A stretch of 64,000 nucleotides of DNA, taken from positions 106,758 through 170,757 of the forward strand of contig CACYSD010000001.1 of assembly GCA_902776985.1 (NCBI GenBank), given 5' to 3'. The first letter of the stretch is position 1. Each line of letters starts with the position of its first letter. Below, in pieces: positions 9,820 to 48,636 of this stretch. The position numbers were made by a program, and so were the translations under genes. This stretch comes from an uncultured Bacteroidales bacterium. GTDB lineage: Bacteria > Bacteroidota > Bacteroidia > Bacteroidales > Bacteroidaceae. The notes below the pieces were generated by a model. The model was not told where the DNA came from. It saw nothing but the letters and a program-made list of their open reading frames with translations, and searched no databases.

Positions 9820-10056
9820 ATGAAAAAGTATTTGATGTTGGTTGCTGCTGTTGCAACTATGGCTGTTGTTTCTTGCAAGAACGAAGCTAAGACTGAAGAA
9901 GCTGCTGAAGAAGCTACTGAAGCTGTAGAAGAAGTTGCTGAAGAGGCTACTGAAGAAGTTGCTGAAGATGCTACTGAAGCTACTGAAGCTACTGAAGAAG
10001 GTGCTGAAGAAGCTACTGAAGCTACTGAAGCTACTGAAGAAGCTGCTGCTGAATAA
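9820..10056 (+). CDS. Small acidic tandem-repeat lipoprotein (EEATEA repeats)
   Basis: Lipoprotein signal MKKYLMLVAAVATMAVVSC, followed by ~55 aa of (E-A-T-E/E-E-V-A) repeats encoded by 9-bp DNA repeats (gctactgaa). The overlapping ORFs on other frames are shadows of the repeat. Confidence 0.55.
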   Translation: MKKYLMLVAAVATMAVVSCKNEAKTEEAAEEATEAVEEVAEEATEEVAEDATEATEATEEGAEEATEATEATEEAAAE

Positions 10057-10285: not shown

Positions 10286-11776
10286 ATGGGAGGTTTTTTT
10301 GGGACAGTATCGATGGAAAAATGTGCCGCAGATTTGTTTTATGGCACAGACTATCAATCACATCTCGGTACTCGACGTGGAGGTATGGCCACTTACAGCC
10401 GTAAGAAAGGATTCTACCGTGCCATCCACAACATGGAAAGTACTTATTTCCGCACTCGCTTTGAACCGGAACTGTCTAAGTTTGAAGGAGAATCAGGTAT
10501 TGGCATCATCAGCGACACAGATGCACAGCCAATGCTTTTCAATAGCCATTTAGGACGATTTGCCATCGTCACCGTTGCCAAGATTAACAACCTGGAAGAG
10601 GTGGCGGACAAACTGCTACAGGAAAACATGTATCTTTCTGAGTTCTCCTCCGGCAAAATCAATCCGACAGAGTTGGTTGGAGTGCTGATAGTGCAGGGAA
10701 AGGACTTTGTGAGCGGCATCGAGAACGTGTTCCGCACCATCAAAGGCTCATGCTCAATGCTCCTTCTGACTGAAGACGGCATCATCGCAGCCCGCGACGC
10801 ATGGGGTAGAACCCCGATTGTTGTGGGAAAGAAAGACGGAGCGATGGCTGTGACCAGCGAGAACACCGCATTCCCTAATCTCGGGTATGAAACCACATAT
10901 TTTGTAGGACCAGGAGAAATCATCCGCCTGCGAGCAGACGGCATGGAACAGCTTCGCCGTCCAAACAAGAAGATGCAAATCTGTTCGTTCCTCTGGATTT
11001 ACTACGGATTCCCCACATCCTCATACGAAGGAAAAACCGTGGAAGATGTCCGCTACACCACAGGAAAAATCATGGGAGAAGAGGATGATGTGGAAGCAGA
11101 CAGCGTTGGCGGCATTCCAGACTCAGGAATAGGTATGGCAGTTGGCTACAGCGCAGGCCATAAGGTTCCCTATCAGAGAGGAATAAGCAAATACACACCA
11201 ACCTGGCCTCGTTCGTTCATGCCACCCAACCAAGAGATGCGCAACCTCGTGGCAAAGATGAAGCTGATTCCCAACCACGACATGCTCGACGGCAAACGAT
11301 GCGTATTCTGCGATGACTCCATCGTCCGTGGCACACAGCTTAGGGAAAACGCAAAGGCATTGAAGGAATTAGGAGCAAAAGAGGTTCACATGCGAATCGC
11401 CTGCCCTCCCCTGATTTATGCCTGTCCGTTTGTCAACTTTTCAGCGTCAAAGTCCGAGTTGGAGCTTATTGCCCGTCGTGTCATCAAGGATTTGGAGACA
11501 CACTCTGAAAAAGCCACTCTCCTTGCCGACGCACAGACAGCACAGAATGTCGATGTACCTGAAGAGCGAATCAAAGCCTATGCCACTACCGACACTCCAG
11601 AATACAAGGCTATGGTGCAGGAGATTGCCCGTCGTCTCAATCTCGACAGTCTGAAATTCACCAAACTTGAGACCATCATCAAGGCAATAGGACTGGAGAA
11701 ATGCCAAGTATGCACCCACTGCTTCGACGGCAGTTCCTTCTACTCACTGAAAGAAGATCCAGGAGAACAGGATTAA
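10286..11776 (+). CDS. Amidophosphoribosyltransferase-like protein (class II glutamine amidotransferase + type I PRTase domain), probably with N-terminal propeptide
   Basis: C-terminal PRTase motif VFCDDSIVRGTQL. The N-terminus has Cys at position 13 (EKCAADLFYG..HLGTRRGG), consistent with a PurF-type propeptide followed by the nucleophile Cys. 496 aa. Confidence 0.65.
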   Translation: MGGFFGTVSMEKCAADLFYGTDYQSHLGTRRGGMATYSRKKGFYRAIHNMESTYFRTRFEPELSKFEGESGIGIISDTDAQPMLFNSHLGRFAIVTVAKINNLEEVADKLLQENMYLSEFSSGKINPTELVGVLIVQGKDFVSGIENVFRTIKGSCSMLLLTEDGIIAARDAWGRTPIVVGKKDGAMAVTSENTAFPNLGYETTYFVGPGEIIRLRADGMEQLRRPNKKMQICSFLWIYYGFPTSSYEGKTVEDVRYTTGKIMGEEDDVEADSVGGIPDSGIGMAVGYSAGHKVPYQRGISKYTPTWPRSFMPPNQEMRNLVAKMKLIPNHDMLDGKRCVFCDDSIVRGTQLRENAKALKELGAKEVHMRIACPPLIYACPFVNFSASKSELELIARRVIKDLETHSEKATLLADAQTAQNVDVPEERIKAYATTDTPEYKAMVQEIARRLNLDSLKFTKLETIIKAIGLEKCQVCTHCFDGSSFYSLKEDPGEQD

Positions 11777-11849
11777 GGGGTAAAGGGCTTGAGAAGTTTA
11801 ATTAAAATTGTACTTAGTACTTTGTTAAACGGTAAAAAGTTCCACAGCA

Positions 11850-11950
11850 TTGTGGGAAAAAAGTTTCAGCGAAGTGAAACAAAAGTTTCACCGCAGTGAA
11901 AATAAAGTTTCAGCGAAGAGAAAAAAAAGTTTCACTTCGCTGAAACTTTT
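11850..11950. repeat. Array A: four 22-bp-spaced hairpin units GTTTCA-N6-TGAAAC (iteron-like), flanked by an A/T run
   Basis: Units start at 11863, 11885, 11907 and 11929 (exact 22-bp period). Units 1 and 4 are reverse complements of each other. The conserved 5' flank ttgtgggaaaaaagtttca is shared with the second copy at 38913. Confidence 0.6.
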
Positions 11951-11977
11951 TTTCTTTTTGCTTATCGAGGATAAAGA

Positions 11978-12095
11978 CCTGTAGTTTAACGATTTCAGTT
12001 GACTACTTTCAGCCTTATTTGTAATATGGGTTGACTTTGGTTAATACTTTTTTTTAATCTCGATTGTCAACTATTGTTGCTTATTTATGATATTA
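11978..12095. repeat. 118-bp repeat segment X, copy A
   Basis: About 90% identical to the reverse complement of 38781-38898 (tgtagtttaacgattt..gttgactactttcagccttatttgtaatatgggttgacttt..tgtcaactattgttgcttatttatgatat). Confidence 0.6.
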
Positions 12096-12229
12096 GTTGA
12101 TAGTATTTCTGTAATCCGAGTAGAAGGGCGGTATTCCGCCATGAAGCGAACAGGGAAATAAATACATCGACGTATTTGCCATTAAGGATTATTATGTTTA
12201 CCTTTGCACATAGTTATAATATATCAACA

Positions 12230-13339
12230 ATGAAGAAGATAATATTAATGGTCGCAGTCGCCATGATGACTGCCATGACGCTGAACTCATGCAGCGACGA
12301 TGATGATACAAAAGTAGTGAACCACGATAAGCCAGTGGTGCTGAACTGTGCAAAGCCCGACTATCTGAAGGAGGGCGACAAGGTGGCGCTGATTTCGCCA
12401 TCGTACTATACGCCGATGGAGAACGTCGAGAAAACCGCCAACGTGCTGCGCTCGTGGGGATTGGAACCCGTTATCGGACCAAACGTGGGTAAGGTGGTTG
12501 ACGGAAAATATGCCGGCACCGTGGCAGAGCGTGTGAGCGATATCCGCTGGGCGCTGCGCGATTCCGACATCAAGGCTATTATCTGTAACCGTGGCGGCTA
12601 TGGCACCATCCAGCTCATTGACCAGTTGACACTGGCTGAGCTGAAAGCTTCACCTAAATGGCTGGTAGGCTTCAGCGACATCTCGACGCTACACGGTCTG
12701 CTGACCCGCGCCGGAGTGATGAGCATCCATGGCACCATGAGCTCGTTCCTGGCCAAGGGCGGCACCGACGCCACCAGCACGCTGATGCGCGACCTGCTCC
12801 TGGGCAATGTGCCTCGATATGAGCTGCCTGCACATAAGCAAAACATCACTGGTACAGCTACCGGCACGCTCGTGGGCGGTAACATCTGCACCTTTGCACC
12901 AAACCTCGGCTCGCAAGCCGATGCCACCAAAGGCAAGAACATTATTCTCTTCATTGAGGAGGTGGAGGAGTCGATGCATAACATAGACCGCCAGATGCGC
13001 ATACTCCAGATGAACGGTGTGCTTGACCGCTGCCGGGGCATCATCCTCGGTGAGTTCACCGACTGCGGCAAGGAGTTTACATACGAGAGTGTTGAGGCGA
13101 TGCTCCACGAGATGCTGAAGGCGTACAACATCCCCGTGCTCTGCGGCTTCCCCGGCGGTCACGGTGATGTGAACCTCCCCCTCGTGATGGGTGCCAACGT
13201 CACCATCGACGTGCGCAACGACGGAGCCACCCTGCAGTTTAACATCGACGGTGACCAGCAGCAGGTGAACACCGCCGACATAACCGCCCCTGTAACCCCT
13301 GCCGCCGTCCGTATGCGTCTGGCAGGAAAGTTGGAGTAA
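12230..13339 (+). CDS. LD-carboxypeptidase (peptidase S66, LdcA/MccF-like), lipoprotein
   Basis: Lipoprotein signal MKKIILMVAVAMMTAMTLNSC. S66 motifs (RGGYGT, GFSDISTLH, catalytic Ser context). The ORF-track TTG start at 12176 is probably spurious; the ATG at 12230 precedes the signal peptide. Confidence 0.75.
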   Translation: MKKIILMVAVAMMTAMTLNSCSDDDDTKVVNHDKPVVLNCAKPDYLKEGDKVALISPSYYTPMENVEKTANVLRSWGLEPVIGPNVGKVVDGKYAGTVAERVSDIRWALRDSDIKAIICNRGGYGTIQLIDQLTLAELKASPKWLVGFSDISTLHGLLTRAGVMSIHGTMSSFLAKGGTDATSTLMRDLLLGNVPRYELPAHKQNITGTATGTLVGGNICTFAPNLGSQADATKGKNIILFIEEVEESMHNIDRQMRILQMNGVLDRCRGIILGEFTDCGKEFTYESVEAMLHEMLKAYNIPVLCGFPGGHGDVNLPLVMGANVTIDVRNDGATLQFNIDGDQQQVNTADITAPVTPAAVRMRLAGKLE

Positions 13340-13363
13340 AGATAAAAGAGGAAGACAATAATC

Positions 13364-14155
13364 ATGAAACAGGTCAAACTTTGGATGATAGCCGCCATCC
13401 TAATCTGCGGCACAACGATTGTATCCTGCTCTTCGGACAAGAATAAGGAAGCGAATGTCAACGAGACTGAGGATACCAGCCAGTTTGTAACCATTACCGA
13501 CGTAGTGCCCGACGTGATTCTGGAAATCCGCTACTTCGGCACGTACAACTTTGTGGGAACGCGCATCGATGGCTATGAGGAACCGACGGCGCTCTTAACC
13601 AAACAGGCCGCTGACAGCCTGAAGGCTGTAAGCGATGACGTGAAAGCTCAAGGCTATCGCCTGAAGATCTATGATGCCTACCGTCCGCAGAAAGGTGTTG
13701 ACCACTTTGTGCGCTGGGCTGAGGACATCAACGACACACTGATGAAGGCATACTTCTATCCAGACCTCGACAAGAGTGTGCTCTTTCCTCAGGACTATAT
13801 CTGCCTGAAGAGCGGTCATACCCGTGGTTCTACCATTGACCTGACGCTTTTCGATATGAATACCGAAAAGGAAATCGACATGGGCGGCACCTTCGACTGG
13901 TTCGGTCCCGAGAGTCATCCCGACTTCTGCGGCAATCCCGAGACAGGTGAATACACAGGCGACAACTCGGAATCACCCACTGAGCCGAAACGTAGTATTA
14001 CCCCTGAGCAGTTCCAGAACCGCATGATTCTGCGTCAGGCTATGCAGCGTCACGGCTTCAAGCCTTTCGACACCGAGTGGTGGCACTTTACCCTGAAGGA
14101 CGAACCCTTCCCCGATACGTATTTTACTTTCCCTGTCAAGCAACTGAGTAAATGA
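13364..14155 (+). CDS. D-alanyl-D-alanine dipeptidase (VanX/DdpX-like, peptidase M15D)
   Basis: Signal peptide. YRLKIYDAYRP...SGHTRGSTIDLTL...WWHF motifs are typical of VanX-family zinc dipeptidases. Confidence 0.75.
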   Translation: MKQVKLWMIAAILICGTTIVSCSSDKNKEANVNETEDTSQFVTITDVVPDVILEIRYFGTYNFVGTRIDGYEEPTALLTKQAADSLKAVSDDVKAQGYRLKIYDAYRPQKGVDHFVRWAEDINDTLMKAYFYPDLDKSVLFPQDYICLKSGHTRGSTIDLTLFDMNTEKEIDMGGTFDWFGPESHPDFCGNPETGEYTGDNSESPTEPKRSITPEQFQNRMILRQAMQRHGFKPFDTEWWHFTLKDEPFPDTYFTFPVKQLSK

Positions 14156-14222
14156 GACAACGAACACTATGGCTATTTGCCATTATCTTGACATTCCTGG
14201 GCAGCCAAAAGGTAGTTAGGAA

Positions 14223-15080
14223 ATGAAAATGGCCAGACTATGGGTACTCGCCGCCATCCTGATACTATGCGGCACAGTATCGTTTGCATCATGCACGTCG
14301 AACGATGACAATCCCTCTGCGGTGCAGCCCACCATACAACGTATCCAGGAACGTGGCAAGTTGCTCGTTGGCACCACGGGCGACTATCGTCCGCTGTCAT
14401 ATAAAGAGGCCGACGGAAACTATTGGGGCTTCGGCATTGAGATGGTAGAAAAGATAGCCGAAAGGCTACGGGTAGGCGAGCGTAGCTCGGGAATTCGTAT
14501 CAGTGTAGGAATTGAATTCGTACAAACTTCGTGGCCTACGCTGACTACTGATGTGCTGGCCGACCCGCAGACTTTTGACCTCGCAATCGGTGGCATAACC
14601 ATTACCGACACACGAAAGGAGACGATGCTGATGAGTGACGGCTATCTATGTAATGGCAAGACCATCCTCTGTCGTGCTACTGAGACCGACCGTTTCCAGT
14701 CGTTGGCTGACATCGACAAACCGGAGGTGCGCGTGATGGTGAACCCCGGCGGATTGAACGAGAAGTTTGCCAACGAGAACCTAACCCACGCCACCATCAT
14801 CGTCCACCAAAAGAATGAGGAAATCCCGACTCTTATAGCTGAAGGTGAAGCCGACGTGATGATTACCGAAATCACTGAGGCTCCCTGGTACGTGCAGAAT
14901 GACCCGCGCCTTGCTGCACCCCTCATAAACTCACCTTTCACCCACGGAGAAATCGGCGTGCTGATGCGCAAAGGTCAGGACGATCTTCTCGCCCTTGTCA
15001 ACGCTGTCATTGCCCAGATGAAAGCTGACGGTAGCCTCCGCCATCTTCACGAGAAATATGGCTTAGTGTATGGATATTAG
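14223..15080 (+). CDS. Periplasmic solute-binding protein, family 3 (amino-acid ABC transporter substrate-binding-like)
   Basis: Signal/lipoprotein peptide. LLVGTTGDYRPLSY...GFGIEMV pattern of SBP_bac_3. Confidence 0.65.
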   Translation: MKMARLWVLAAILILCGTVSFASCTSNDDNPSAVQPTIQRIQERGKLLVGTTGDYRPLSYKEADGNYWGFGIEMVEKIAERLRVGERSSGIRISVGIEFVQTSWPTLTTDVLADPQTFDLAIGGITITDTRKETMLMSDGYLCNGKTILCRATETDRFQSLADIDKPEVRVMVNPGGLNEKFANENLTHATIIVHQKNEEIPTLIAEGEADVMITEITEAPWYVQNDPRLAAPLINSPFTHGEIGVLMRKGQDDLLALVNAVIAQMKADGSLRHLHEKYGLVYGY

Positions 15081-15130
15081 AAACCAGACAATACCAACCT
15101 ATTTTTAGCCATTCTGAATAACTAATTAAG

Positions 15131-16078
15131 ATGAAAACCATTTGTCATTACATATCGGAATATATGGGTGTGCTGGTGCTTGCAGCCGCATTGCTGGCAC
15201 TGGCATTTCCAAGTGTGCTGCAACAGGTGCCGGCAACGGTTATAAACTATCTGCTGGGAGTGGTGATGTTTGGTATGGGACTGACACTGAACCTTAAGGA
15301 CTTCAAGATAGTGTTCAGCCGTCCGAAGGATGTCATCATCGGTTGTCTGGCACAGTTCACCATCATGCCTCTGCTGGCATGGGGACTGGCAAGAGCCTTT
15401 CAGCTCGACGAAGCGCTGGCGCTGGGTGTGGTGCTGGTAGGTTGTTGTCCTGGCGGTACAGCATCGAATGTGATTACCTATCTGGCGAAAGGCGACCTGG
15501 CTTTGTCCGTAGGAATGACTGGTGTCTCTACCCTACTCGCTCCGCTGCTTACGCCATTACTGACATGGGCTTTGGCAGGGAAGAGCGTCAATGTTGATGT
15601 GGCGGGTATGCTGCTGAGCATTCTCTGGATAGTTATACTGCCCATCGTCGTAGGATTGATTGTCAAGGGACTTTGGCCGAAGTTCACGGAGCGCACAACA
15701 GACTATCTTCCTGCTTTCTCGTCTGTTGCGATTGCCCTCATTGTTGCTATAATCATTGCCGCAAATGCTTCCAAGTTGTTGGCAGGCGGTCTGATTATAG
15801 TCATTGTGGTCGTGCTTCACAACCTCTGTGGACTGAGTCTTGGATATCTTATCGGGCGGCTGTTAGGGCTTGCAGAACCGAAGAAGCGAGCTATCTCCAT
15901 CGAGGTAGGCATGCAGAACTCCGGTCTGGCTTCGTCATTAGCCACTCTCCATTTTGCCGCCTACCCTCTGGCAACTATCCCGGGTGCCATCTTCAGCGTA
16001 TGGCACAACATCAGCGGTGCATTGGTTGCCCGACTTTACACAAGGAAACAATATCAAGTACAAAGTACAAATGACTAA
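15131..16078 (+). CDS. Bile acid:sodium symporter (BASS) family transporter
   Basis: Polytopic. CCPGGTASNVITYLAKGD and GMQNSGLA motifs are typical of the SBF/BASS family. Confidence 0.8.
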   Translation: MKTICHYISEYMGVLVLAAALLALAFPSVLQQVPATVINYLLGVVMFGMGLTLNLKDFKIVFSRPKDVIIGCLAQFTIMPLLAWGLARAFQLDEALALGVVLVGCCPGGTASNVITYLAKGDLALSVGMTGVSTLLAPLLTPLLTWALAGKSVNVDVAGMLLSILWIVILPIVVGLIVKGLWPKFTERTTDYLPAFSSVAIALIVAIIIAANASKLLAGGLIIVIVVVLHNLCGLSLGYLIGRLLGLAEPKKRAISIEVGMQNSGLASSLATLHFAAYPLATIPGAIFSVWHNISGALVARLYTRKQYQVQSTND

Positions 16079-16084
16079 GTAGAA

Positions 16085-16122
16085 AATACGCATAACCAGC
16101 ATTTGGCTATGCGTATTTTTTT
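16085..16122 (+). terminator. Rho-independent terminator after the BASS transporter gene
   Basis: Perfect 10-bp stem aatacgcata / tatgcgtatt with a 13-nt loop, followed by a T7 run. Confidence 0.65.
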
Positions 16123-16236
16123 AAAGGAAAAACTGAAGAATAAGAAAAATGTCGTATATTTGCAAAAAGACATAGCACTATACAATCTAAAGACATAGCT
16201 CCATACTAACTAATTAAGATAAAATAATATAGTTAT

Positions 16237-18591
16237 ATGAAGAAGATTATTACGTTAATTACACTTGTCACAATGGTAGCCCTGAGTGCTCAGGCACAAG
16301 AAGAAAAGCAGGAGAGCAAAGCCAGCGTAGGTTTGGGTTTTGTAAACATTGCCGACTCTATCAAGGGAGTGCAGCTGTCGCCTATATCGAATATTGCCGA
16401 ACATGCCAGCGGTCTGCAGCTATCGGGCTTCAGCAACGTGGCATACGACGGAATGAAAGGTGTGCAGATCTCAGGTCTCAACAACATTGTCATCGGCGAA
16501 GCCAACGGTCTGCAGCTGTCTGGTTTCACTAACCAGAATGTGGGAATACTGAAGGGTGTGCAGATTGCCTTCCGCAATGAGACGGACACTTTACGCGGCG
16601 TACAGATCGGTCTGCTCAACTACGTCACCCATGACTACCAGAAAGGTGTGCAGATAGGCCTTATAAACTATTCACGCGACACAATCGCTAAACGGTACGG
16701 ACTCATCAACGTGAACCCGAAGACGCGCATCGACTTGATGGTCTATGGAGGCAACCACTCGAAAACCAACTTGGCATTTCGTTTCCGCAACCGCTCCACA
16801 TATAACATCATCGGTGTGGGCACTCACTACATGGGACTTAGCGAAAAGTTCTCGGGAGCGCTCTTCTACCGCATCGGTCAGTATTTCGAACTGACACCGA
16901 GGTTATCTGTCAGCGGAGACTTGGGATTCTCCCACATTGAGACATTCCAGGAGAACTCCCCCCAAGCTCCTGAGCGCCTATACTCATTAGAAGGCCGTCT
17001 GAACCTCGACTATCAGTTAAGCAAAAGCTGGGGCGTTTTCGGTACTGTGGGCTACGGCGACACACGCTACTACGACCACAACAAGAGTTACCGCCACCGC
17101 ATGATTGGTGAATTGGGTCTGACCTACCATTATAACGGTTTTAACAGTAACAGGAGCCGGTCAATCCGCCTGCACTCCGAAGAGGATATGCTTGGTGGCG
17201 ACGAAGACCGCTTTGCCCTGTCGCCAAAGAAGAATATGTGGCGTACAGCCGGAATGATCACAGCGCTGAACGTGTTTGTAAACCGCTGGGACACTTGGGT
17301 GCTGGGTGAGGAGTTCTCTCGCATCAGTTTCCACAGCATCGGCCACAACTTCGAGCACGCCTTCGTGTGGGACAACGACAACTTCAACACCAACCTGTTT
17401 GCACACCCATATCACGGAAACCTTTACTTCAACTCAGCCCGTGCCAACGGCTATAACTTCTGGGAGTCATATCCATGTGCCTTGGGCGGCTCTCTGATGT
17501 GGGAGTTCTTCGGTGAAATCACACCGCCAGCTATCAACGACCTGATGGCTACTTCCATTGGTGGTACCTGCATCGGTGAAATCGCCTTCCGTGTGAGCGA
17601 CCTCTTCTACGATGACCGTGAGGTTGGTTTCAGCCGTTTCCTCCGTGAGCTTGGCGGTGCCCTCATCTCTCCTATGAAAGGACTGAAGCGTGTACTCACC
17701 GGTGAGGCATGGAAACGGAGGAGCAGTCATTATCTATACCACGACTACAGCCGCATACCTGTGAGCTACAGTGTATCGTTCGGTGACCGCTACTTAGCTG
17801 ACGATCGCGCCCTGTTCCGAGGCGAGCATAACCCATACCTGGAACTGGGTTTGGAGTACGGCGACCCATACAATAACGACGAGAACAAGCCATTCGACTT
17901 CTTCCACGCCAATGCTACATTCGGATTCTCCAGCAACCAGCCTGCCGTCAACCGATTGAATTTGCTGGGACGTCTTTGGGGCACTTCGATTGCAGACACA
18001 AAGAAATTCGAAGCTGACTTCGGTCTCTTCCAGCACTTCAACTTCTACAACTCCGAGGCAGTGAAGGATGGCACAGACCTCATCCCATACCGCATCAGCG
18101 AAGCAGCCTCTGTGGGTCCAGGTCTCATCTACAGATTCCCACAGTTAGAGGAGCGTATGAACCTGGAACAGCGCATCTACCTGAGCGGAATCCTGCTTGG
18201 CGGCTCTCTCAGCGACTACCTCTATATCCAAGAGCGCGACTACAACATGGGTAGCGGATTCTCGGCTAAGATACAAACGAACATGGACATCAAGAAGGTG
18301 GGCTATATGAACATCGATGCCAACTACTTCCACATCTTCACATGGAAAGGCTACGACCGTTCGGAATGGGTTGGCAAGGAAGGCTTCGAACTTGACTACA
18401 CCAACGCTCAAGGAGACCCGGGCAACACTCGTATGCTTGCCTTCAACGCCGACTTCGGCCTTTACCTCACTAAGAACCTCTCAGTAAATCTGCGAGGCAG
18501 CTATTTCTGGCGCCATGCACATTACCGTGACTTCAAGGACGTCGATGCAAGGACATTCGAACTCCGTGCTGGACTGACCTATAAACTCTGA
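16237..18591 (+). CDS. Outer-membrane-type hypothetical protein with N-terminal ~22-aa tandem repeats (G-V/L-Q-L/I-S-G..N) and a DUF3943-like core
   Basis: Signal peptide. At least six repeats (GVQLSPISN, GLQLSGFSN, GVQISGLNN, GLQLSGFTN, GVQIAFRN, GVQIGLLN, GVQIGLINY). Aromatic-rich C-terminal region ends in a beta-barrel-like terminal F/L. A candidate -7 box TATATTTG lies at 16155-16162. Confidence 0.45.
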   Translation: MKKIITLITLVTMVALSAQAQEEKQESKASVGLGFVNIADSIKGVQLSPISNIAEHASGLQLSGFSNVAYDGMKGVQISGLNNIVIGEANGLQLSGFTNQNVGILKGVQIAFRNETDTLRGVQIGLLNYVTHDYQKGVQIGLINYSRDTIAKRYGLINVNPKTRIDLMVYGGNHSKTNLAFRFRNRSTYNIIGVGTHYMGLSEKFSGALFYRIGQYFELTPRLSVSGDLGFSHIETFQENSPQAPERLYSLEGRLNLDYQLSKSWGVFGTVGYGDTRYYDHNKSYRHRMIGELGLTYHYNGFNSNRSRSIRLHSEEDMLGGDEDRFALSPKKNMWRTAGMITALNVFVNRWDTWVLGEEFSRISFHSIGHNFEHAFVWDNDNFNTNLFAHPYHGNLYFNSARANGYNFWESYPCALGGSLMWEFFGEITPPAINDLMATSIGGTCIGEIAFRVSDLFYDDREVGFSRFLRELGGALISPMKGLKRVLTGEAWKRRSSHYLYHDYSRIPVSYSVSFGDRYLADDRALFRGEHNPYLELGLEYGDPYNNDENKPFDFFHANATFGFSSNQPAVNRLNLLGRLWGTSIADTKKFEADFGLFQHFNFYNSEAVKDGTDLIPYRISEAASVGPGLIYRFPQLEERMNLEQRIYLSGILLGGSLSDYLYIQERDYNMGSGFSAKIQTNMDIKKVGYMNIDANYFHIFTWKGYDRSEWVGKEGFELDYTNAQGDPGNTRMLAFNADFGLYLTKNLSVNLRGSYFWRHAHYRDFKDVDARTFELRAGLTYKL

Positions 18592-18620
18592 TAATGTCAA
18601 AGCTACAGACTTAAGAGAAT

Positions 18621-36132: not shown

Positions 36133-36181
36133 AATTTTCTTATTTTCAGTTAAATTATTATTCTATAATTCGAGACCTTAA

Positions 36182-38221
36182 TTATTTTACAAGTACTTTC
36201 TTGCCGTTGATAATGTATAGTCCCTTAGTAGGAGCGGTTACTACGCGTCCTGAGATGTCGAAAATCTTGCCGCTTGTAAGAGTTTCAATAGCATTCATAC
36301 TCTCAATTCCTGTTGTATCATCTGCTCCGTTGAAGAAGAGTTCTACACGACCTTTAGCAGAAGAAGGAGTAATCAGAGCCTTATTAACATAAGCCTTGTT
36401 CGCACCAACTGTAATAGCATTTGCTCCAGTAGCGCCTTCTGTATCGTAAAGAGTATTATTACTTAAGATGTAATAGTTTGCACCTGCAGGTGCTGTAATT
36501 GATGAGAATGTACCGATAAGGCCATTGTTAGTTCCCGCAGAAGCTGCATCATATGTATCAAAATCTGCACGGAAGAAATGGACGTTCAGGACGGTTTTTT
36601 CATTATCTTGGCCATTTACATCGGAAGAAATATAAAAATATGGTTTTCCTGCTTCAAGAAGCCCAGAAACCTTGGTCAGGCTAATACTAGCGCCATCTGT
36701 TCCTGCAATGCTATATACCTCACAACCAGCATAAGCAGCTTTATATGGTAGACAGATTGTCCCAAACTTGCCAGTTTCAGTATATTCTCGTTCTAAATCT
36801 CCGCGAACATATAAATCCCATCTTCCACGACTTGTTATCTTTGTATTTGCGTAGTCAGTTAAATACGCTACAGATGGCTGAATGTCACCTGTAATTTCCA
36901 AAGATTTTATATTAAAAATATCTAGACCATTTGATATACGCAACTGATTCAAATCTATAGCTATAATATTCTGACTATTCCATCTGTCAAGCCACATGCC
37001 AGCGCCAGTACCTGCTGCTTGACCATTATAACTATCTCCACGTACTGAATACTCACTGTTATCTTTAATAATTATCTCATGACTGGCATTTGCTGCTGTA
37101 TTTTCAGTAGCAATTACAAGATAATTCCAATTATATAAATCCACAGGTGTATCAAATGTCCATTTACCATTTTCGAAATTATTAACATCAAAAATGGCAT
37201 CGTTTGCGGCAACAGTTAACTTTTCAGGAACACGTGTTACATTAAGAACATAAAATACCCATTCACTTTTACCAAAGAAATTCTCCGTTTTTACAGATCC
37301 ATCTTTTAGATAGGATGTGATTTTGTAAGTATTTTCTTTTCCGTCAACGGCTGTTACGCCAAAGAAACACCCCTGTTCACCACTATCATCTTTTGCAACA
37401 ATATTACGAGTCCAACCAATATCATTTAAGTAACAATTACCGCCATACCAAGGACCTGTATATACAGACGTCCCGTTTCCTTTAAAAGCTTGAATACGAT
37501 ATAGTGTTGAAACTCCATCGGGCATAACAAGCCCCTCATCGTCAGCTTCTGTAATACGAAAACGGTATGTTCCATTATCATTCACTTTACCCATAACAGT
37601 GTTAATAGATGCTGCACGTATTTGATTGTCAGTATTATCGCCGTAAAGTATTGTCTCATCAGCACTCGCAATGCAGACTAAACGGTTTTCGCTAACAATA
37701 GATGAAAAAGATAATTTTGTTCCAGGAACGTATTCATACTCAAAAGGACCGTAAATATAAACATTGGTTATTGAAACAGAAGCGGGATTGTCGTTATCAA
37801 TAGAATGACCATCTGTAGCACTTGTTGATCCCCATATTGTAATATCCGCAAGATTCGAAAAATCAACAGAAGGGTTAGCTGCTTTTAATGCTACAAGGTC
37901 AATATTATTCTCTCCTGCAACAAGATTTACATCTGCGTAATGATCTGTACCATCATTACTTTTAATTCTCAGGCGAACAAAATCGGCATTTTCACTAAAA
38001 TTGGACAATGTGGCGTGCAATGTCGTATAATTGGAAATGTCTGTCGGAAAGTCTGTACCAATTATCGTGTAACCGGAAGTTGCCTTCCATGTCATTGTAC
38101 TAGTGTTTTTATCCCAATCAGCTCCGTAAACCGACCTAAGTGTTCCGTTTGTTGTTAAAGCTTTGAGTTCAGAAATGCCAAAGGCAAACAACAATGCACT
38201 TAATAGTAAAATTTTTTTCAT
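36182..38221 (-). CDS. Secreted T9SS cargo protein of unknown function (beta-rich, possibly carbohydrate-binding)
   Basis: Signal peptide MKKILLLSALLFAFGISELKA. C-terminal ~80 aa (KIFDISGRVVTAPTKGLYIINGKKVLVK) matches the T9SS type-A CTD pattern. 679 aa. Confidence 0.6.
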   Translation of the reverse strand: MKKILLLSALLFAFGISELKALTTNGTLRSVYGADWDKNTSTMTWKATSGYTIIGTDFPTDISNYTTLHATLSNFSENADFVRLRIKSNDGTDHYADVNLVAGENNIDLVALKAANPSVDFSNLADITIWGSTSATDGHSIDNDNPASVSITNVYIYGPFEYEYVPGTKLSFSSIVSENRLVCIASADETILYGDNTDNQIRAASINTVMGKVNDNGTYRFRITEADDEGLVMPDGVSTLYRIQAFKGNGTSVYTGPWYGGNCYLNDIGWTRNIVAKDDSGEQGCFFGVTAVDGKENTYKITSYLKDGSVKTENFFGKSEWVFYVLNVTRVPEKLTVAANDAIFDVNNFENGKWTFDTPVDLYNWNYLVIATENTAANASHEIIIKDNSEYSVRGDSYNGQAAGTGAGMWLDRWNSQNIIAIDLNQLRISNGLDIFNIKSLEITGDIQPSVAYLTDYANTKITSRGRWDLYVRGDLEREYTETGKFGTICLPYKAAYAGCEVYSIAGTDGASISLTKVSGLLEAGKPYFYISSDVNGQDNEKTVLNVHFFRADFDTYDAASAGTNNGLIGTFSSITAPAGANYYILSNNTLYDTEGATGANAITVGANKAYVNKALITPSSAKGRVELFFNGADDTTGIESMNAIETLTSGKIFDISGRVVTAPTKGLYIINGKKVLVK

Positions 38222-38780
38222 TGTAATTTGAAGTTTATTTAATTAGTTAATAAATAATTGAATACAAACGAGAAAAGGGTTTTGATGGCAGATGCCAACA
38301 AAACCCTTAAACGGTATTATATAAAAAAAACTTAAAACTTGCTGAAACGCAGGAATTATACAACTCGTTGAAACACAGAGAATTACCCCCCCTATTAGGT
38401 TACAGGGAATCTTGCTGAAAAGTGGGAAAGTATTCATCTGTACGGTCTTGATTAATAAAGTTGGTAAAAACTATGATATAATTTTGTTTCGGATGCAAAT
38501 ATATGGAGATTATCGTAGCTAAAATTATAGTATTTAACCAATCACTATCAAATTTGATAACGACAAAAATTTCTTTTTCTCGCCAATCATGTTTCAATTT
38601 TAAAACTTTTTCACATTTTTATGTTGTACAGCATAAAAATCAGTGTAAAATACTGTCTAAATGCCCTAAAATGCTTTTAAAAATATAACATACACCACAA
38701 ATCAATGATTTTAAAAGAATTATCGAAAAAACATGTAATTGCCATTTATGACCCATTAAGAATTAGACGAAGAACCACTT

Positions 38781-38898
38781 ATATCATAAATAAGCAACAA
38801 TAGTTGACAACCTATATTAAAAATAAGTATAAAACAAAGTCAACCCATATTACAAATAAGGCTGAAAGTAGTCAACCAAAATCGTTAAACTACAATTA
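38781..38898. repeat. 118-bp repeat segment X, copy B (inverted relative to copy A)
   Basis: Its reverse complement aligns with 11978-12095 at about 90% identity. Confidence 0.6.
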
Positions 38899-38912
38899 AA
38901 AAGTCCCAAAGC

Positions 38913-39035
38913 GTTGTGGGAAAAAAGTTTCACTGTGCTGAAACTTTATTTTCACTGTGCTGAAACAAAAGTTTCTCTGCGGTGAAACTTTTGTTTCACT
39001 CCCACTGAAACTTTTGTTCCAGTGCGAAGAAACCA
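38913..39035. repeat. Array B: five 22-bp-spaced hairpin units GTTTCA-N6-TGAAAC (iteron-like)
   Basis: Units start at about 38927, 38949, 38971, 38994 and 39016. Same 5' flank ttgtgggaaaaaagtttca as array A. Lies ~160 bp upstream of rhaB. Confidence 0.6.
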
Positions 39036-39191: not shown

Positions 39192-40616
39192 ATGACATCC
39201 AAGTATTTTTTCTGTGTTGACCTCGGTGCTACAAGCGGACGAACGATTCTCGGCAGCATCGTGAACGACAAGTTACAACAACGCGAACTGACTCGTTTCC
39301 CAAATAATATCATACAGACCGGAGGACATTTCTTCTGGGATATCTATGCTCTCTATAACGAGATTATAAAGGGACTGAAGTTGGTTGCCAGCGAAGGCAT
39401 CGAGATTACCTCAATCGGTATCGATACCTGGGGCTGCGACTTTGTGATGATTGGTAAGGACGGCGGCATCCTCCGCAATCCCTACTGCTACCGCGATCCT
39501 CACACCGACGGTGCAATGGAGGAATACTTCAAACTGATTCCAAAGGAGAAAGTGTATGAGAAGACCGGCATTCAGTTCATGCAGTTCAACTCGCTTTTCC
39601 AACTCGCCACGCTGCGCCGTAACCACGACTCGGCTCTGGAGGCAGCAGAGAAGATTCTCTTTATTCCCGATGCTCTGACATACATGCTTACTGGCGAGGC
39701 TGTTTGCGAATACACCGTGCTCAGCACCAGTCAGATGCTGGATCCCCGCACCAAGAGGATTGACAAGGAACTTATCAATGCCATAGGTCTGAAGGAAGAG
39801 CAGTTTGGCAGATATGTGCAACCAGGCGAGGTGGTAGGTGTACTTAGCGAAGAGGTGCAGAAACAGACAGGTCTCGGTGCGGTGCCCGTAGTGGCTGTTG
39901 CCGGACACGACACAGGTAGTGCTGTGGCTGCTGTTCCTGCAGAGGACGAGAGATTTGCCTACCTCAGTTGCGGCACTTGGTCGCTGTTGGGAATCGAAAG
40001 CAAGGATGCTATCATCAACAAGAAGAGTTTTGAGTATAACTTCACTAACGAAGGTGGAATAGAGGGAACAACCCGTTTCCTGAAGAATATCTGCGGAATG
40101 TGGCTGTTGGAAAGGGCAAGGAAGGAGACCCTCCTCCAAGCTTGGCCATCGGACATTAATCAGATTAATCAAGATGCGATGGAGGCGAAACCGTTCCAGT
40201 CGATTATCAATCCAGATGACCCGCGGTTTGCTAATCCACCGTCAATGATTGAGGCTATCCAGAGTTATTGCCGCGAGACAGGTCAGCATGTGCCGGAGAA
40301 CTACAAGGAGATTGCACGCTGTATCTTCGAGAGTCTCGCACAGAGATACAAGGAAGTGCTGGACTACCTGAAAGAACTGGCACCCTTCCCCATCGAGAAA
40401 CTGCATGTCATCGGTGGAGGTACCTACAACCAGTATCTGATGCAGATGACTGCGAACAGCATCGGGCTGCCAGTAGTTACTGGTCCTGTAGAAGGCACCG
40501 CCATCGGTAATATGATGATTCAGGCAAAAGCCGCCGGTCTTGTCAGCGACATCTTCGCCATGCGCCACATCATCGCCAACAGCATCGAACTGAAGACTTA
40601 CCTGCCGGAAAGCTGA
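39192..40616 (+). CDS. rhaB: Rhamnulokinase (FGGY carbohydrate kinase family)
   Basis: N-terminal CVDLGATSGRTILG; FGGY N- and C-domains; 474 aa. Context with rhamnulose-1-P aldolase and a sugar isomerase. Confidence 0.8.
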   Translation: MTSKYFFCVDLGATSGRTILGSIVNDKLQQRELTRFPNNIIQTGGHFFWDIYALYNEIIKGLKLVASEGIEITSIGIDTWGCDFVMIGKDGGILRNPYCYRDPHTDGAMEEYFKLIPKEKVYEKTGIQFMQFNSLFQLATLRRNHDSALEAAEKILFIPDALTYMLTGEAVCEYTVLSTSQMLDPRTKRIDKELINAIGLKEEQFGRYVQPGEVVGVLSEEVQKQTGLGAVPVVAVAGHDTGSAVAAVPAEDERFAYLSCGTWSLLGIESKDAIINKKSFEYNFTNEGGIEGTTRFLKNICGMWLLERARKETLLQAWPSDINQINQDAMEAKPFQSIINPDDPRFANPPSMIEAIQSYCRETGQHVPENYKEIARCIFESLAQRYKEVLDYLKELAPFPIEKLHVIGGGTYNQYLMQMTANSIGLPVVTGPVEGTAIGNMMIQAKAAGLVSDIFAMRHIIANSIELKTYLPES

Positions 40617-40819
40617 GAAGGACTAAGAAATCCTAGGAAATCCTAAGAAATCCTAAGAAATCCTAGGAAATCCTAGGCGGTTCTAGGCTATACTAGGCAA
40701 TCCTAGGAAAGCCTAGGAAAGCCTAGGAAAGCCTAGGAGAACCTAGGAGAACCTAGGAGAACCTAGGCACTTCTAGGCAGACCTAGGCACTCCTATAAGA
40801 GCCTAGAAAAACCTAAAAC
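40617..40819 (+). repeat. Phased 10-bp tandem repeat array 1 (NNCCTAGGNN, about 20 units) immediately after the rhaB stop codon
   Basis: tcctaggaaa tcctaagaaa ... acctaggaga ... all in register with a 10-nt period. The CCTAGG core is palindromic; A/purine tracts are phased at 10 bp. Confidence 0.7.
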
Positions 40820-41532: not shown

Positions 41533-41540
41533 GGAGAAAT

Positions 41541-41752
41541 AGGAAAAGCTAGGAAATCCTAGGCTATCCTAGGCAGGCCTAGGCAGACCTAGGCAGACCT
41601 AGGAAATCCTAGGCGGTCCTAGGCAATCCTAGAAAAGCCTAGGAAAGCCTAGGAAAGCCTAGGAGAACCTAGAAGAACCTAGAAAAACCTAAGAAAAGCC
41701 TAGAAAAGCCTAGAAAAGCCTAGAAAAATCCAGAAAACCCCAAGAACTAAAA
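41541..41752 (+). repeat. Phased 10-bp tandem repeat array 2 (NNCCTAGGNN, about 20 units; one 11-bp unit, with decay to CCTAGA/CCAGA at the 3' end)
   Basis: ggaaatccta ggctatccta ggcaggccta ggcagaccta ... aaaagcctag aaaagcctag. Ends 12 bp before the isomerase start. Confidence 0.7.
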
Positions 41753-43195: not shown

Positions 43196-43275
43196 AAGAC
43201 CCACCTGAAGACCCACCCCGACCCTCAAAGGGAAGACCCACCCCCTTACCCCTCCCTTGTAAGGAGGGGAGTAGT
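43196..43275 (-). repeat. GC-rich G4-motif hairpin element, copy 4 (extended, with three gaagaccca sub-repeats; G-rich on minus strand)
   Basis: Reverse complement contains CTACTCCCCTCCTTACAAGGGAGGGGTAAGGGGGTGGGTCTTC. Confidence 0.55.
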
Positions 43276-43301
43276 TACCTTTTCAAAACAAAAAGAAAAC
43301 A

Positions 43302-43688: not shown

Positions 43689-45063
43689 GCAAACAAATTC
43701 TAATAATCAATCTACTCCCCGCCCTCACAGGGAGGGGCAAGGGGGAGGGTCTTCTTCTTTGAAGAGTACCCTTGCGGTCTCTCTGAATAATTACCTTGAT
43801 GCGGGAGCAATCGTAGCAGGTTCAAGCGGAATTACCTTGTGGCAGAATTATCTGGGGCTGTCGGAGATGCATCTGGGTTGGCTCAATGCACTAAGTGCTA
43901 ATGCGCTGGGTGCAGCTATCGGAGCAATCATCGGTGGCTTCCTCGCAGATAAGTTCGGACGTAAGTTCATCTTCACATACAATCTGTTGGTGTATATGCT
44001 TGGTGTGCTCATCATCATGCTGTCCATTAGCTATCCCATGCTCCTTTGCGGATTCCTCGTCACAGGTATTTCAGTAGGAGTGGGAGTTCCTGCATCGTGG
44101 ACATATATCTCTGAAAGCAGTGAGGTTCACAACCGCGGCCGCAACATCTGCATCTCACAGATGTCGTGGGGCATCGGACCTATGCTCATCCTCTTCTTCG
44201 GTATGCTCTTTGCACCAGGCGGCTACTGCTACGGTCCTGTAGAATCGCTGGCTCATGCCATCATCGGTGCCGATGCTTCCCAGGCTGCGGTTGAGGTATT
44301 CTCATCGAGAGTAGTGTTCTTCACCCTCTTCGTTGTTGCCTTCATTGCCTGGAACCTCCAACGTCAGTTGCAGGAAAGCGCTGAGTTCGAAGCCAACAAA
44401 CAGAAAGGCAATAGCGGTATGGTTGAAAACATCAAGATGCTGTTCACCAACCGCATTGCAGTCAAGGCTGTGGTATTCCTTGCAACAATCTATTTGACTT
44501 GGAACCTCGTTGCCTCAGTTATGGGATTCTTCATGCCTCATGTATATGAGACTGCAGGCGGGCTCAGCAACGAAACCGCAAATATGCTTAGTTGCATAAG
44601 CTGGGTATTCGTTGTAGTTACCACCCTCATCATCTCGTTCTTAGTTGACAAGGTTGCACACCGTGTGTTCTACGTCTTCGGTCTGGCAGCTGCACTGACA
44701 GCATGGATTCTCGTCATTGGCGGAAGTATTACCAGCATTGCCGGCATTTGGGTGTTCACCATCCTGTGGGGTATCAACAACGGCAGCAGCGTACAGATAT
44801 TCTATGCACTTTGGGGCAGTGAGCTTTTCCCTGCGAAATTCCGTGCCGGTGCACAGGGACTGATGTTTTTCATCGTCCGTGGTCTCTCAGCGCTGTGGGG
44901 ACTGATCTTCACGCTTATCTACGGAGAGAACGGCGAAGGCTTCACCATCGCAGCCTACTGCATGATTGGTCTCCTCGTTATCTCTCTCGTCGTCGGTTTC
45001 ATCGGTGCCCCCAACACCCGCGGCAAATCGCTGGAACAGATTACAAAGGAAAGATATGGGTAG
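43681..45063 (+). CDS. MFS-family sugar transporter (probable rhamnose/deoxy-sugar permease)
   Basis: 12 predicted transmembrane helices and the MFS motif GGFLADKFGRK. The annotated first ~25 codons (..STPRPHREGQGGGSSS) are the translation of the hairpin repeat; the true start may be downstream. Confidence 0.7.
   Translation: MNKQTNSNNQSTPRPHREGQGGGSSSLKSTLAVSLNNYLDAGAIVAGSSGITLWQNYLGLSEMHLGWLNALSANALGAAIGAIIGGFLADKFGRKFIFTYNLLVYMLGVLIIMLSISYPMLLCGFLVTGISVGVGVPASWTYISESSEVHNRGRNICISQMSWGIGPMLILFFGMLFAPGGYCYGPVESLAHAIIGADASQAAVEVFSSRVVFFTLFVVAFIAWNLQRQLQESAEFEANKQKGNSGMVENIKMLFTNRIAVKAVVFLATIYLTWNLVASVMGFFMPHVYETAGGLSNETANMLSCISWVFVVVTTLIISFLVDKVAHRVFYVFGLAAALTAWILVIGGSITSIAGIWVFTILWGINNGSSVQIFYALWGSELFPAKFRAGAQGLMFFIVRGLSALWGLIFTLIYGENGEGFTIAAYCMIGLLVISLVVGFIGAPNTRGKSLEQITKERYG
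43712..43754 (+). repeat. GC-rich G4-motif hairpin element, copy 5
   Basis: CTACTCCCCGCCCTCACAGGGAGGGGCAAGGGGGAGGGTCTTC. Confidence 0.55.
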
Positions 45064-45094: not shown

Positions 45095-45232
45095 AGTGAT
45101 AGGAAAACCTAGAAAAGCCTAGGAGAGCCTAGGAAAGCCTAGAAAAGCCTAGGAAAACCTAGGAGAACCTAGGAGAGCCTAGGAAAACCTAGGAGAACCT
45201 AGGCAGACCTAGGCACTCCTAGAAGAACTTAA
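45095..45232 (+). repeat. Phased 10-bp tandem repeat array 3 (NNCCTAGGNN, about 13 units), upstream of rhaD
   Basis: aaaacctaga aaagcctagg agagcctagg aaagcctaga ... agacctaggc actcctagaa. Confidence 0.7.
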
Positions 45233-45260
45233 AAACTCAAAAACTAAAAAACTAAATAAA

Positions 45261-48547: not shown

Positions 48548-48565
48548 AAGCGAATTAATTCTGGA

Positions 48566-48622
48566 TGTCGTTATGACGATATGACGTAATAACTATATAA
48601 CGTTATATCGATATGACGCTAA
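48566..48622. promoter_or_regulatory. Conserved ~50-bp intergenic module with palindrome TATAACGTTATA, copy 2 (upstream of the GH2 gene)
   Basis: cgttatgacgatatgacgtaataactatataacgttatatcgatatgacgct. Confidence 0.35.
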
Positions 48623-48636
48623 AACGTCCTTAAGGT

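Follow-up and report, generated by a model that had tools for sequence, protein, structure and literature searches.

Palindromic repeats are known targets of insertion sequences (ISs) of the IS3 family, of which IS1397, ISKpn1 and ISPsy8 insert in the palindromes of repetitive extragenic palindromic (REP) sequences and bacterial interspersed mosaic elements (BIMEs) (PMC1525189). Here we describe a comparable locus in a 64,000-nt stretch of DNA from an uncultured Bacteroidales bacterium (assembly GCA_902776985.1, contig CACYSD010000001.1, positions 106,758 to 170,757; hereafter the window, to which all coordinates refer). The window contains two copies of a segment that we call X, lying in inverted orientation on either side of a 26.7-kb block of housekeeping genes, and each copy stands beside an array of short palindromes with a period of 22 bp. 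X, a segment of 118-127 bp, is the non-coding right terminus of an insertion sequence of the IS3 family, to which its homology is demonstrated below. Each copy in the window is a solo end, the remainder of its element having been lost. Our preferred explanation, to which we assign a probability of roughly three in four, is that the two copies are orphaned IS3-family ends situated at palindrome arrays, and that the pair they form is a fortuitous inverted repeat.

The locus resembles the REP-associated elements in that the same IS family is involved and extragenic palindromic repeats are hit at a defined position within the palindrome (PMC1525189); indeed, insertions of the element described here are concentrated in palindromic repeats, at a fixed position. 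However, the targets in our case are tandem arrays with a strict 22-bp period whose sequence is specific to each site, whereas REPs follow one consensus per species, and the arrays are rare (two in 169 kb), whereas REPs number hundreds per genome. Moreover, the hosts here are Bacteroidales. Among the sites studied we did not find an abundant REP family with one species-wide consensus serving as target, but many array families, which are rare.

A second point of comparison is the BrickBuilt MITE (miniature inverted-repeat transposable element) of Porphyromonas gingivalis, in which a single 23-nt repeat lies inside the element, flanked by leader and tail sequences whose terminal repeats are of the IS5 type (GAGACC..) (PMC4596501). 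Both are intergenic elements of Bacteroidales in which a minisatellite of ~22-23 nt is combined with sequence derived from an IS end (PMC4596501), yet the arrays described here have dyad symmetry and differ in sequence among sites, and the associated IS is a member of the IS3 family. A BrickBuilt MITE (terminal repeats GAGACCTTTGCA) was consequently rejected as a candidate for our locus, where the arrays are external to the IS end, the repeats at the termini begin with TGT and the period is 22. Finally, inversions of the chromosome between IS copies in inverted orientation have been documented, as have ISs without target duplications (PMC11708052). Our locus is similar to these in that an inverted IS-derived pair flanks a segment and many intact relatives of the element are without target duplications, but it differs in that an imperfect homology of 118-245 bp is all that is left here, and that no inversion product was found.

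Solo right ends of an IS3-family insertion sequence

The left copy of X (X_L; 11980-12097) and the reverse complement of the right copy (X_R; 38777-38894), each 118 nt in length, are identical at 109 of 118 positions (92%), with longest perfect runs of 42 nt and 30 nt, and the two arms are separated by 26,679 nt. A 24-mer from the X core occurs twice in the window, in the arms only, against an expectation of 0 from shuffled sequence. Both arms adjoin arrays with a 22-bp period, located by Tandem Repeats Finder (TRF) at 11857-11934 and 38926-39000. An initial annotation of this DNA, made from the sequence alone, had reported 118-bp inverted repeats of ~90% identity, each beside an iteron-like array, and on both counts our results agree with it. 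Its report of an internal direct repeat (gttgactac...gttgacttt) was likewise accurate, this repeat being composed of GTTGAC motifs of the IS end. The existence of the repeats thus stands, but their nature as IS ends had been missed, and the supposedly iteron-like arrays are the usual insertion context of the element.

A BLAST search of plasmid records with X returned one weak match of 42 nt, in Parabacteroides distasonis, where a hairpin array is followed by TGTAGTTTAACGA-N5-GTTGACTACTTTCAG in the same architecture as in the window. Metagenome contigs were scanned with the core common to the window X and P. distasonis (pattern AGTTTAACGANNNNNGTTGACTACT), which matched at least 120 metagenome stretches, individual sequences being designated below by L numbers; the same pattern matched 0 viral contigs. 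A phage search for X produced no match, and a scan of a genome collection with a 20-mer from the X core yielded one chance coding match in an Alistipes metagenome-assembled genome and nothing else. All tallies of X copies given here and below are among the matches listed of the metagenome scan. These copies begin sharply at 5'-TGT and are conserved over ~110-130 nt, the sequence upstream of the TGT being specific to each site, and they occupy at least 98 distinct upstream flanks. Many of the matches lie within 50-130 nt of a contig end, as is typical for a multi-copy repeat. The 122 listed copies comprise 59 solo ends (31-130 nt), 13 that belong to complete ISs of 1.50-1.75 kb, 3 partial copies and 47 that are cut by contig ends, showing that the element breaks short-read assemblies.

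The intact copies reveal the affiliation of the element. OrfB of the intact IS in L090 scores 243 bits against the NCBIfam model transpos_IS3 (NF033516; cut-off 160) and matches the Pfam domains rve and rve_3, while OrfA is a small helix-turn-helix (HTH) protein. In all four copies checked (L090, L102, L121 and L091) a slippery site, AAAAAAAG, is located at ~nt 384, where OrfA ends and OrfB resumes in the -1 frame, and a programmed -1 frameshift between OrfA and OrfB is accordingly predicted at this site. TGT-N15-GTTGAC is common to both ends of the element, TGTCTTTTTGTAGATAAGGTTGAC on the left and TGTAGTTTAACGATTTTAGTTGAC on the right, which constitute imperfect 5'-TG..CA-3' terminal inverted repeats. 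Among the eight intact copies for which both flanks are available, a target duplication of 3-4 bp is visible in two (CGC in L090, TAGT in L091) and absent in six.

These intact relatives are similar to IS3-family members of the IS911, IS150, IS2 and IS3 types in combining an HTH OrfA with a DDE/rve OrfB, connected by a putative A7G -1 frameshift, and additionally in their length, their 5'-TG..CA-3' ends and their 3-4-bp target duplications where these can be seen. They differ from the family at large in a long non-coding right end (150-400 nt) with GTTGAC about every 32 nt, and in left and right terminal repeats that agree in TGT-N15-GTTGAC only; the window differs further in keeping nothing but solo right ends of ~120 nt. 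An end of an IS21 or Tn7-like element, with which X shares a TGT terminus and repeated subterminal motifs, was rejected once the adjacent open reading frame (ORF) was recognised as an IS3-family OrfB.

Both window copies are 78-88% identical to the first 112-125 nt of the intact ISs. X_L starts with 5'-TGTAGTTTAACG and extends on the + strand over 11980-12106, its common part with X_R ending at 12097 and its homology to intact copies reaching ~+125 (80.8% over 125 nt against the intact IS in L102, BLAST E 2e-28). X_R belongs to the same IS lineage and lies on the - strand, with its TGT terminus at 38894 facing outward; its homology to intact copies stops at ~+112 to +118. In X, GTTGAC or GTTTAC motifs recur at about +19, +51, +85 and +118, a spacing of ~32 bp (in X_L, GTTGAC at 11998 and 12030, GTCAAC at 12065 and GTTGAT at 12097), and these subterminal motifs are presumably binding sites of the transposase.

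No other part of the IS was found in the window at the DNA or protein level: beyond 112-125 nt of right end at either site there is no left end, and OrfA and OrfB gave no tblastn match to the whole window at E <= 10. It is because the window is without transposase or any other IS part that we regard both X copies as solo ends. A MITE was also considered and rejected, as no sequence resembling the IS left end is present beside either X; furthermore, no second, inverted copy of the X tip exists within 4 kb, the left end of the element being a different sequence that shares TGT-N15-GTTGAC only.

Several listed stretches (L043, L049, L102, L129 and L139) contain nested or tandem partial copies of X, for example an old X cut at +21 and followed by a new complete IS end, which suggests that the IS end itself attracts further insertions. 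In P. distasonis, a fixed X remnant of 42 nt lies beside an array of the GTTTC/GAAAC type (NZ_OY725767.1, 12423-12464; L019) and is situated where a gene for a DegT aminotransferase, part of a cluster for glycan synthesis, has its 3' end. Nine metagenome contigs contain this locus as well (L040, L058, L076, L077, L080, L083, L095, L097 and L111); the record NZ_OY725767.1 is labelled 'plasmid 22', and its content looks chromosomal.

Palindrome arrays as the setting of the insertions

The full series of units in the left array occupies 11840-11946 (TRF period 22, 3.5 copies, 83% matches) and consists of one TTCCACA-GCAT-TGTGGGAA unit followed by four GTTTCA-N6-TGAAAC units at 11863, 11885, 11907 and 11929. 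Between the array and the IS terminus lies a spacer of 33 nt (11947-11979), delimited by alignment of the arms, which holds a degenerate last unit (TCTTT..AAAGA). On the right, spacer and array together span 38895-39033 (TRF period 22, 3.4 copies), the unit series beginning at 38904 with TCCCA-N8-TGGGA (38904-38921) and continuing with units at 38927, 38949, 38971, 38993 and 39016. With 0.18 occurrences expected, the window contains 6 copies of the GTTTCA-N6-TGAAAC motif.

The arrays had been described in the initial annotation as direct repeats accompanying an inverted X. This description does not hold, since the units are dyad-symmetric and therefore match in both orientations. When the arrays are aligned inverted, they are 83% identical over 80 nt, including a perfect run of 24 nt across the asymmetric loop CCGCAG, whereas a direct alignment is poorer (72% over 104 nt). 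Moreover, the inverted match is collinear with that of X, the two having coordinate sums of 50873 and 50874 and thus lying one 1-nt indel apart, and the distance from the last GTTTCA unit to the TGT is 51 nt in one arm and 50 nt in the other. Given that the inverted array match is both better and collinear with X, the true inverted repeat is an arm of ~245 bp on each side, composed of array and X with a diverged spacer of ~26 nt; the spacer between array and IS terminus is poorly conserved across the two arms.

The association of X with such arrays extends well beyond the window. For 109 listed X copies we searched the 120 nt external to the TGT terminus for the lag of strongest autocorrelation, which was 22 in 81 copies and between 21 and 23 in 95. 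By comparison, 6 of 11,664 background windows reached the array threshold, and 3 of these adjoin the other end of an intact IS. The arrays comprise 4-6 units spaced two helical turns apart, and the unit sequences fall into at least 15 unrelated half-site families (for example GTTTC/GAAAC, TTCCC/GGGAA, GGTAC/GTACC, GGACT/AGTCC, TGCAC/GTGCA and GACTC/GAGTC), the 22-bp period and the dyad symmetry remaining constant throughout. At 36 of 55 independent sites the dyad centres are phase-locked to the IS boundary, against ~27% expected by chance. In 169 kb of sequence not selected for X, only two 22-bp palindrome arrays are present, both of them in the window and both beside X. Finally, the intact copies in L090 and L091 split arrays that continue in register across the IS, with target duplications of CGC and TAGT respectively, which argues that the arrays predate the arrival of the IS. 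A 22-bp palindrome array that is unoccupied (CCAATATGGCCCATATTACCGA, four units) was seen in L021.

The arrays are best read as preferred targets of the IS transposase, which would favour palindrome arrays already in place and insert there in a fixed phase with their dyad centres; target specificity would putatively be set by the transposase itself. What is recognised would be structure or periodicity and not sequence. Such recognition is suggested by the 22-bp period that arrays of unrelated sequence have in common, and likewise by the ~80-95% conservation of the IS ends next to arrays that are unrelated in sequence. It is possible, although we hold this with somewhat less than even confidence, that the 22-bp dyad arrays represent an undescribed class of Bacteroidales intergenic repeat that acts as a landing pad for one IS3 lineage and is recognised structurally. 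A full-text literature search for such an array association in Prevotella or Bacteroidetes found nothing, ISfinder lying outside the comparison. In a stronger version of the proposal, the arrays may be maintained, spread or expanded together with the IS end, which would account for their near-universal occupancy and for recurring array-plus-X modules; homologous modules of this kind do occur at different loci, as in L090 and L035/L039.

Origin of the pair and probable exchange between its arms

Under the explanation that we favour, two homologous, oppositely oriented arrays 27 kb apart would each have been hit by the same IS lineage, and these two hits would yield a fortuitous inverted repeat of ~245 bp around the housekeeping block. 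The two copies may have been independent insertions of this kind, or the pair may stem from an IS-mediated rearrangement. The initial annotation had named independent insertions with no inversion as the outcome that would speak against its own model of an inverting block, and this outcome, as will be seen, comes close to the best-supported reading.

Several observations weigh against our explanation. The same array register in both arms (51 and 50 nt), together with the mutual closeness of X_L and X_R, fits a duplication of an array-plus-X unit at least as well; at 92% identity the two are each other's closest relatives, no other copy among the matches listed exceeding 84%. Additionally, six of the eight intact copies with both flanks have neither a target duplication nor the same array on both sides, although recombination between copies of the IS may have shuffled these flanks. 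The rarity of the arrays, and the occupation of nearly all those seen, also fit arrays travelling with the element or generated by it. Furthermore, no intact IS copy was recovered from the window organism itself, and the formation of solo ends of 31-130 nt would be left without explanation.

The alternative that survives best, which we nevertheless consider unlikely, is that the pair is the footprint of one IS-mediated rearrangement, in which a past inversion left an IS copy at each end of the block and both copies later decayed to solo ends. The inversion could have arisen by intramolecular replicative transposition or by recombination between two inverted IS copies. When intramolecular transposition inverts a segment, the same end of the element comes to face outward at both sides, and here both outward ends are indeed the same (right) end, with the TGT outermost. 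The closeness of X_L and X_R noted above is also in keeping with a common origin of this kind, and the junction between purF and ldcA (the genes at the left boundary of the block) is a synteny breakpoint relative to the nearest relatives. However, two later deletions would be required to remove the IS bodies and the inner halves of the arrays, and homologous outer arrays in the same register are not predicted by the model. Moreover, no outgroup retains enough synteny to establish the ancestral orientation: relatives identified through ldcA (~90% identical) and through purF (87-89% identical) showed no synteny, X or arrays in either case.

The sequences concerned (L016-L018 and L140-L142, with an LdcA ~90% identical or an amidophosphoribosyltransferase 87-89% identical) have no neighbouring genes in common with the window, and gene order in this Prevotellaceae group is very fluid. 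A second arrangement comparable to that of the window is present on Ga0310695_10004366, a 26.2-kb rumen contig (L021, L057) that has X at both ends in opposite orientation and also holds the unoccupied array mentioned above.

Less probable still is the model proposed initially, in which the repeats are a working substrate for RecA-dependent inversion and the block occurs in both orientations within populations. RecA-dependent recombination in E. coli requires a minimum of roughly 25 nt, and the repeats are, as had been claimed, large enough for recombination, with perfect runs of 42, 30 and 24 nt. The orientation of the block in other assemblies was examined by exact-protein look-ups, which gave 23 contigs for purF (10 displayed, the others collapsed as similar), 7 for the FGGY kinase gene beyond the right junction, 6 for the gene of a 679-aa protein at the right end of the block and 4 for ldcA, and to these we added two Joint Genome Institute (JGI) contigs that the metagenome scan had supplied, L038 and L115, whose identity to the window is 99.5% and 93-97% respectively. 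Approximately 22 of these contigs, from many samples, span a junction (~17 the left and ~5 the right), and all show the orientation of the window; one contig of 191.8 kb spans both junctions in this orientation, which is also that of a strain ~95% identical. A number of short contigs terminate within X, as a repeat would lead one to expect. The inverted arrangement was found in none of the purF, FGGY, 679-aa or ldcA contigs, nor in L038 or L115, assemblies reporting the majority arrangement only. The predicted inversion of the block is thus not borne out by the contigs available, although a minority may carry the block inverted, and the single orientation, along with the lack of any site-specific recombinase in 29 ORFs scanned, sets the block apart from demonstrated invertible segments.

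Nine positions are diagnostic for X_L versus X_R, and 13 of 15 copies are pure for their own site, carrying the type of their own arm at every one of these positions, which is a further argument against inversion. The remaining two are mosaics. The left copy of L038 reads RRRRRLLLL, with right-arm bases at sites 17-71 and left-arm bases at 80-115, and the right copy of L115 reads RRLLRRRRR, with left-arm bases at sites 61 and 64. Comparison with other IS copies shows the right-arm bases at 61 and 64 to be the derived state, so that their occurrence at the left site points to gene conversion from arm to arm, by which short patches would be exchanged without a visible crossover product. These mosaics are indirect evidence of exchange between arms, and in favour of RecA-dependent inversion it may be said that such a patch could also come from two successive inversions with different crossovers.

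It is very improbable that X and its array constitute either a regulatory module of the host, such as an operator or promoter, or a gene for a small RNA, duplicate copies of which would lie upstream of both ldcA and the gene for the 679-aa protein. Both copies point toward the downstream gene, X contains hexamer pairs resembling those of sigma-70 promoters, and dyad sites two helical turns apart are reminiscent of operator arrays. However, X is homologous to an IS end, Rfam gives nothing above threshold on either strand, and solo X copies elsewhere show no orientation bias with respect to downstream genes. E. coli-type -35/-10 hexamers moreover differ from the Bacteroidetes consensus, and ldcA has its own candidate promoter of the Bacteroidetes type, TTTG-N19-TACCTTTG (12176-12206, + strand), which sits downstream of X, outside the repeat, and was read from the sequence by the consensus of known Bacteroides sigma-A promoters. 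Least credible of all is the reading of the block as a composite transposon, or as an island with IS ends at its boundaries, that inserted in a single array, for although the TGT termini face outward and arrays of the same unit family occupy both outer flanks, we found neither IS copies with a transposase nor a direct target duplication (..ACC precedes TGT on the left, ATT.. follows ACA on the right), the joined flanks are out of register (10 nt observed, 15-19 expected), the arrays align better inverted than direct, no transposase lies inside, and the cargo consists of single-copy core genes (fmt, prfC, tsaC-like) with a GC content like that of the surroundings, the 679-aa gene excepted. An uninterrupted junction from purF through an array to FGGY, with the block elsewhere, is absent among close strains, which likewise speaks against this model.

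Gene content, other repeats and implications

The enclosed block (12230-38221) holds ~25 housekeeping genes, from ldcA to the 679-aa protein, as identified in Pfam scans. They include ldcA, a D-Ala-D-Ala dipeptidase, transporters, DUF3943 and patatin/Omp85 proteins, fmt, an extracytoplasmic function (ECF) sigma factor, prfC, rmlD, an asparaginase, a ROK kinase, a tsaC-like gene, a CLC channel and an MNT/HepT pair. The outer neighbours are an amidophosphoribosyltransferase-like gene (purF; 10286-11776, + strand) on the left and an FGGY sugar kinase (39192-40616, + strand) on the right. No transposase, recombinase or invertase domain was detected by Pfam in the 29 ORFs scanned, and the view that the block is core metabolism and not a mobile element is therefore upheld. 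Neither GC skew nor GC content shows a boundary at the repeats, and the GC content of the block, apart from the 679-aa gene, resembles that of its surroundings. No tRNA or tmRNA was found in the window. A search of the whole window against Rfam on both strands returned nothing at gathering thresholds, and at E <= 10 the junctions gave sub-threshold hairpin or microRNA-like noise.

The gene for the 679-aa protein (36182-38221, - strand) lies in a region of low GC content (0.37) that is the most divergent between strains, 36529-38185 being without a megablast match in L115. Its earlier designation as a cargo protein of the type IX secretion system (T9SS) could not be confirmed, as the protein has no Pfam or NCBIfam match. 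Between this gene and X_R is a non-coding, AT-rich stretch of 555 nt (38222-38776). Amid the housekeeping genes of the block, 35230-35854 encodes a toxin-antitoxin pair that consists of an MNT-type nucleotidyltransferase and a HepT-like RNase. A small ORF rich in Glu, Ala and Thr (9892-10048; ~75-78 aa as called in related contigs), which lies upstream of the amidophosphoribosyltransferase-like gene, is made of coding repeats of 9 to 12 nt (ACTGAAGAAGCT).

The window contains several other repeats. A unit of 10 bp (CCTAGGAAAN) is repeated up to ~18 times in three long arrays, at 40623-40806, 41540-41746 and 45100-45256, which sit in the intergenic gaps of a rhamnose/fucose-type sugar cluster (FGGY kinase, isomerase, major facilitator superfamily transporter and aldolase); their spacing equals one helical turn and their core, CCTAGG, is palindromic. 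Two arrays with an 8-bp period (ACGTTATA / ACGATATG), at 26999-27073 and 48560-48642, are 21.5 kb apart and match both direct and inverted, constituting a second kind of 'iteron-like' array that is unrelated to X. Finally, a GC-rich element of ~45 nt (CTACTCCCCGCCC..GGGAGGGG..GGGGGAGGGTCTT) is present in three copies, at 25548-25594, 43233-43277 (inverted) and 43707-43753, and resembles a REP-type hairpin downstream of genes.

For the organism, the repeat in the window would be an ordinary pair of IS scars, with no role as a switch, as the boundary of an island or in regulation. The mosaic alleles suggest that, even across 27 kb, gene conversion still acts on IS remnants that are short and diverged. 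The IS3-family element that carries X is abundant in rumen and gut Prevotellaceae and Tannerellaceae, and its ends, its target context and its remnants are now defined. If recognition of the arrays is indeed structural, the element would provide a natural example of the targeting of palindrome arrays without a fixed sequence, and the 22-bp arrays, which appear to be insertion hot spots, would serve as a marker of rearrangement-prone sites in Bacteroidales.

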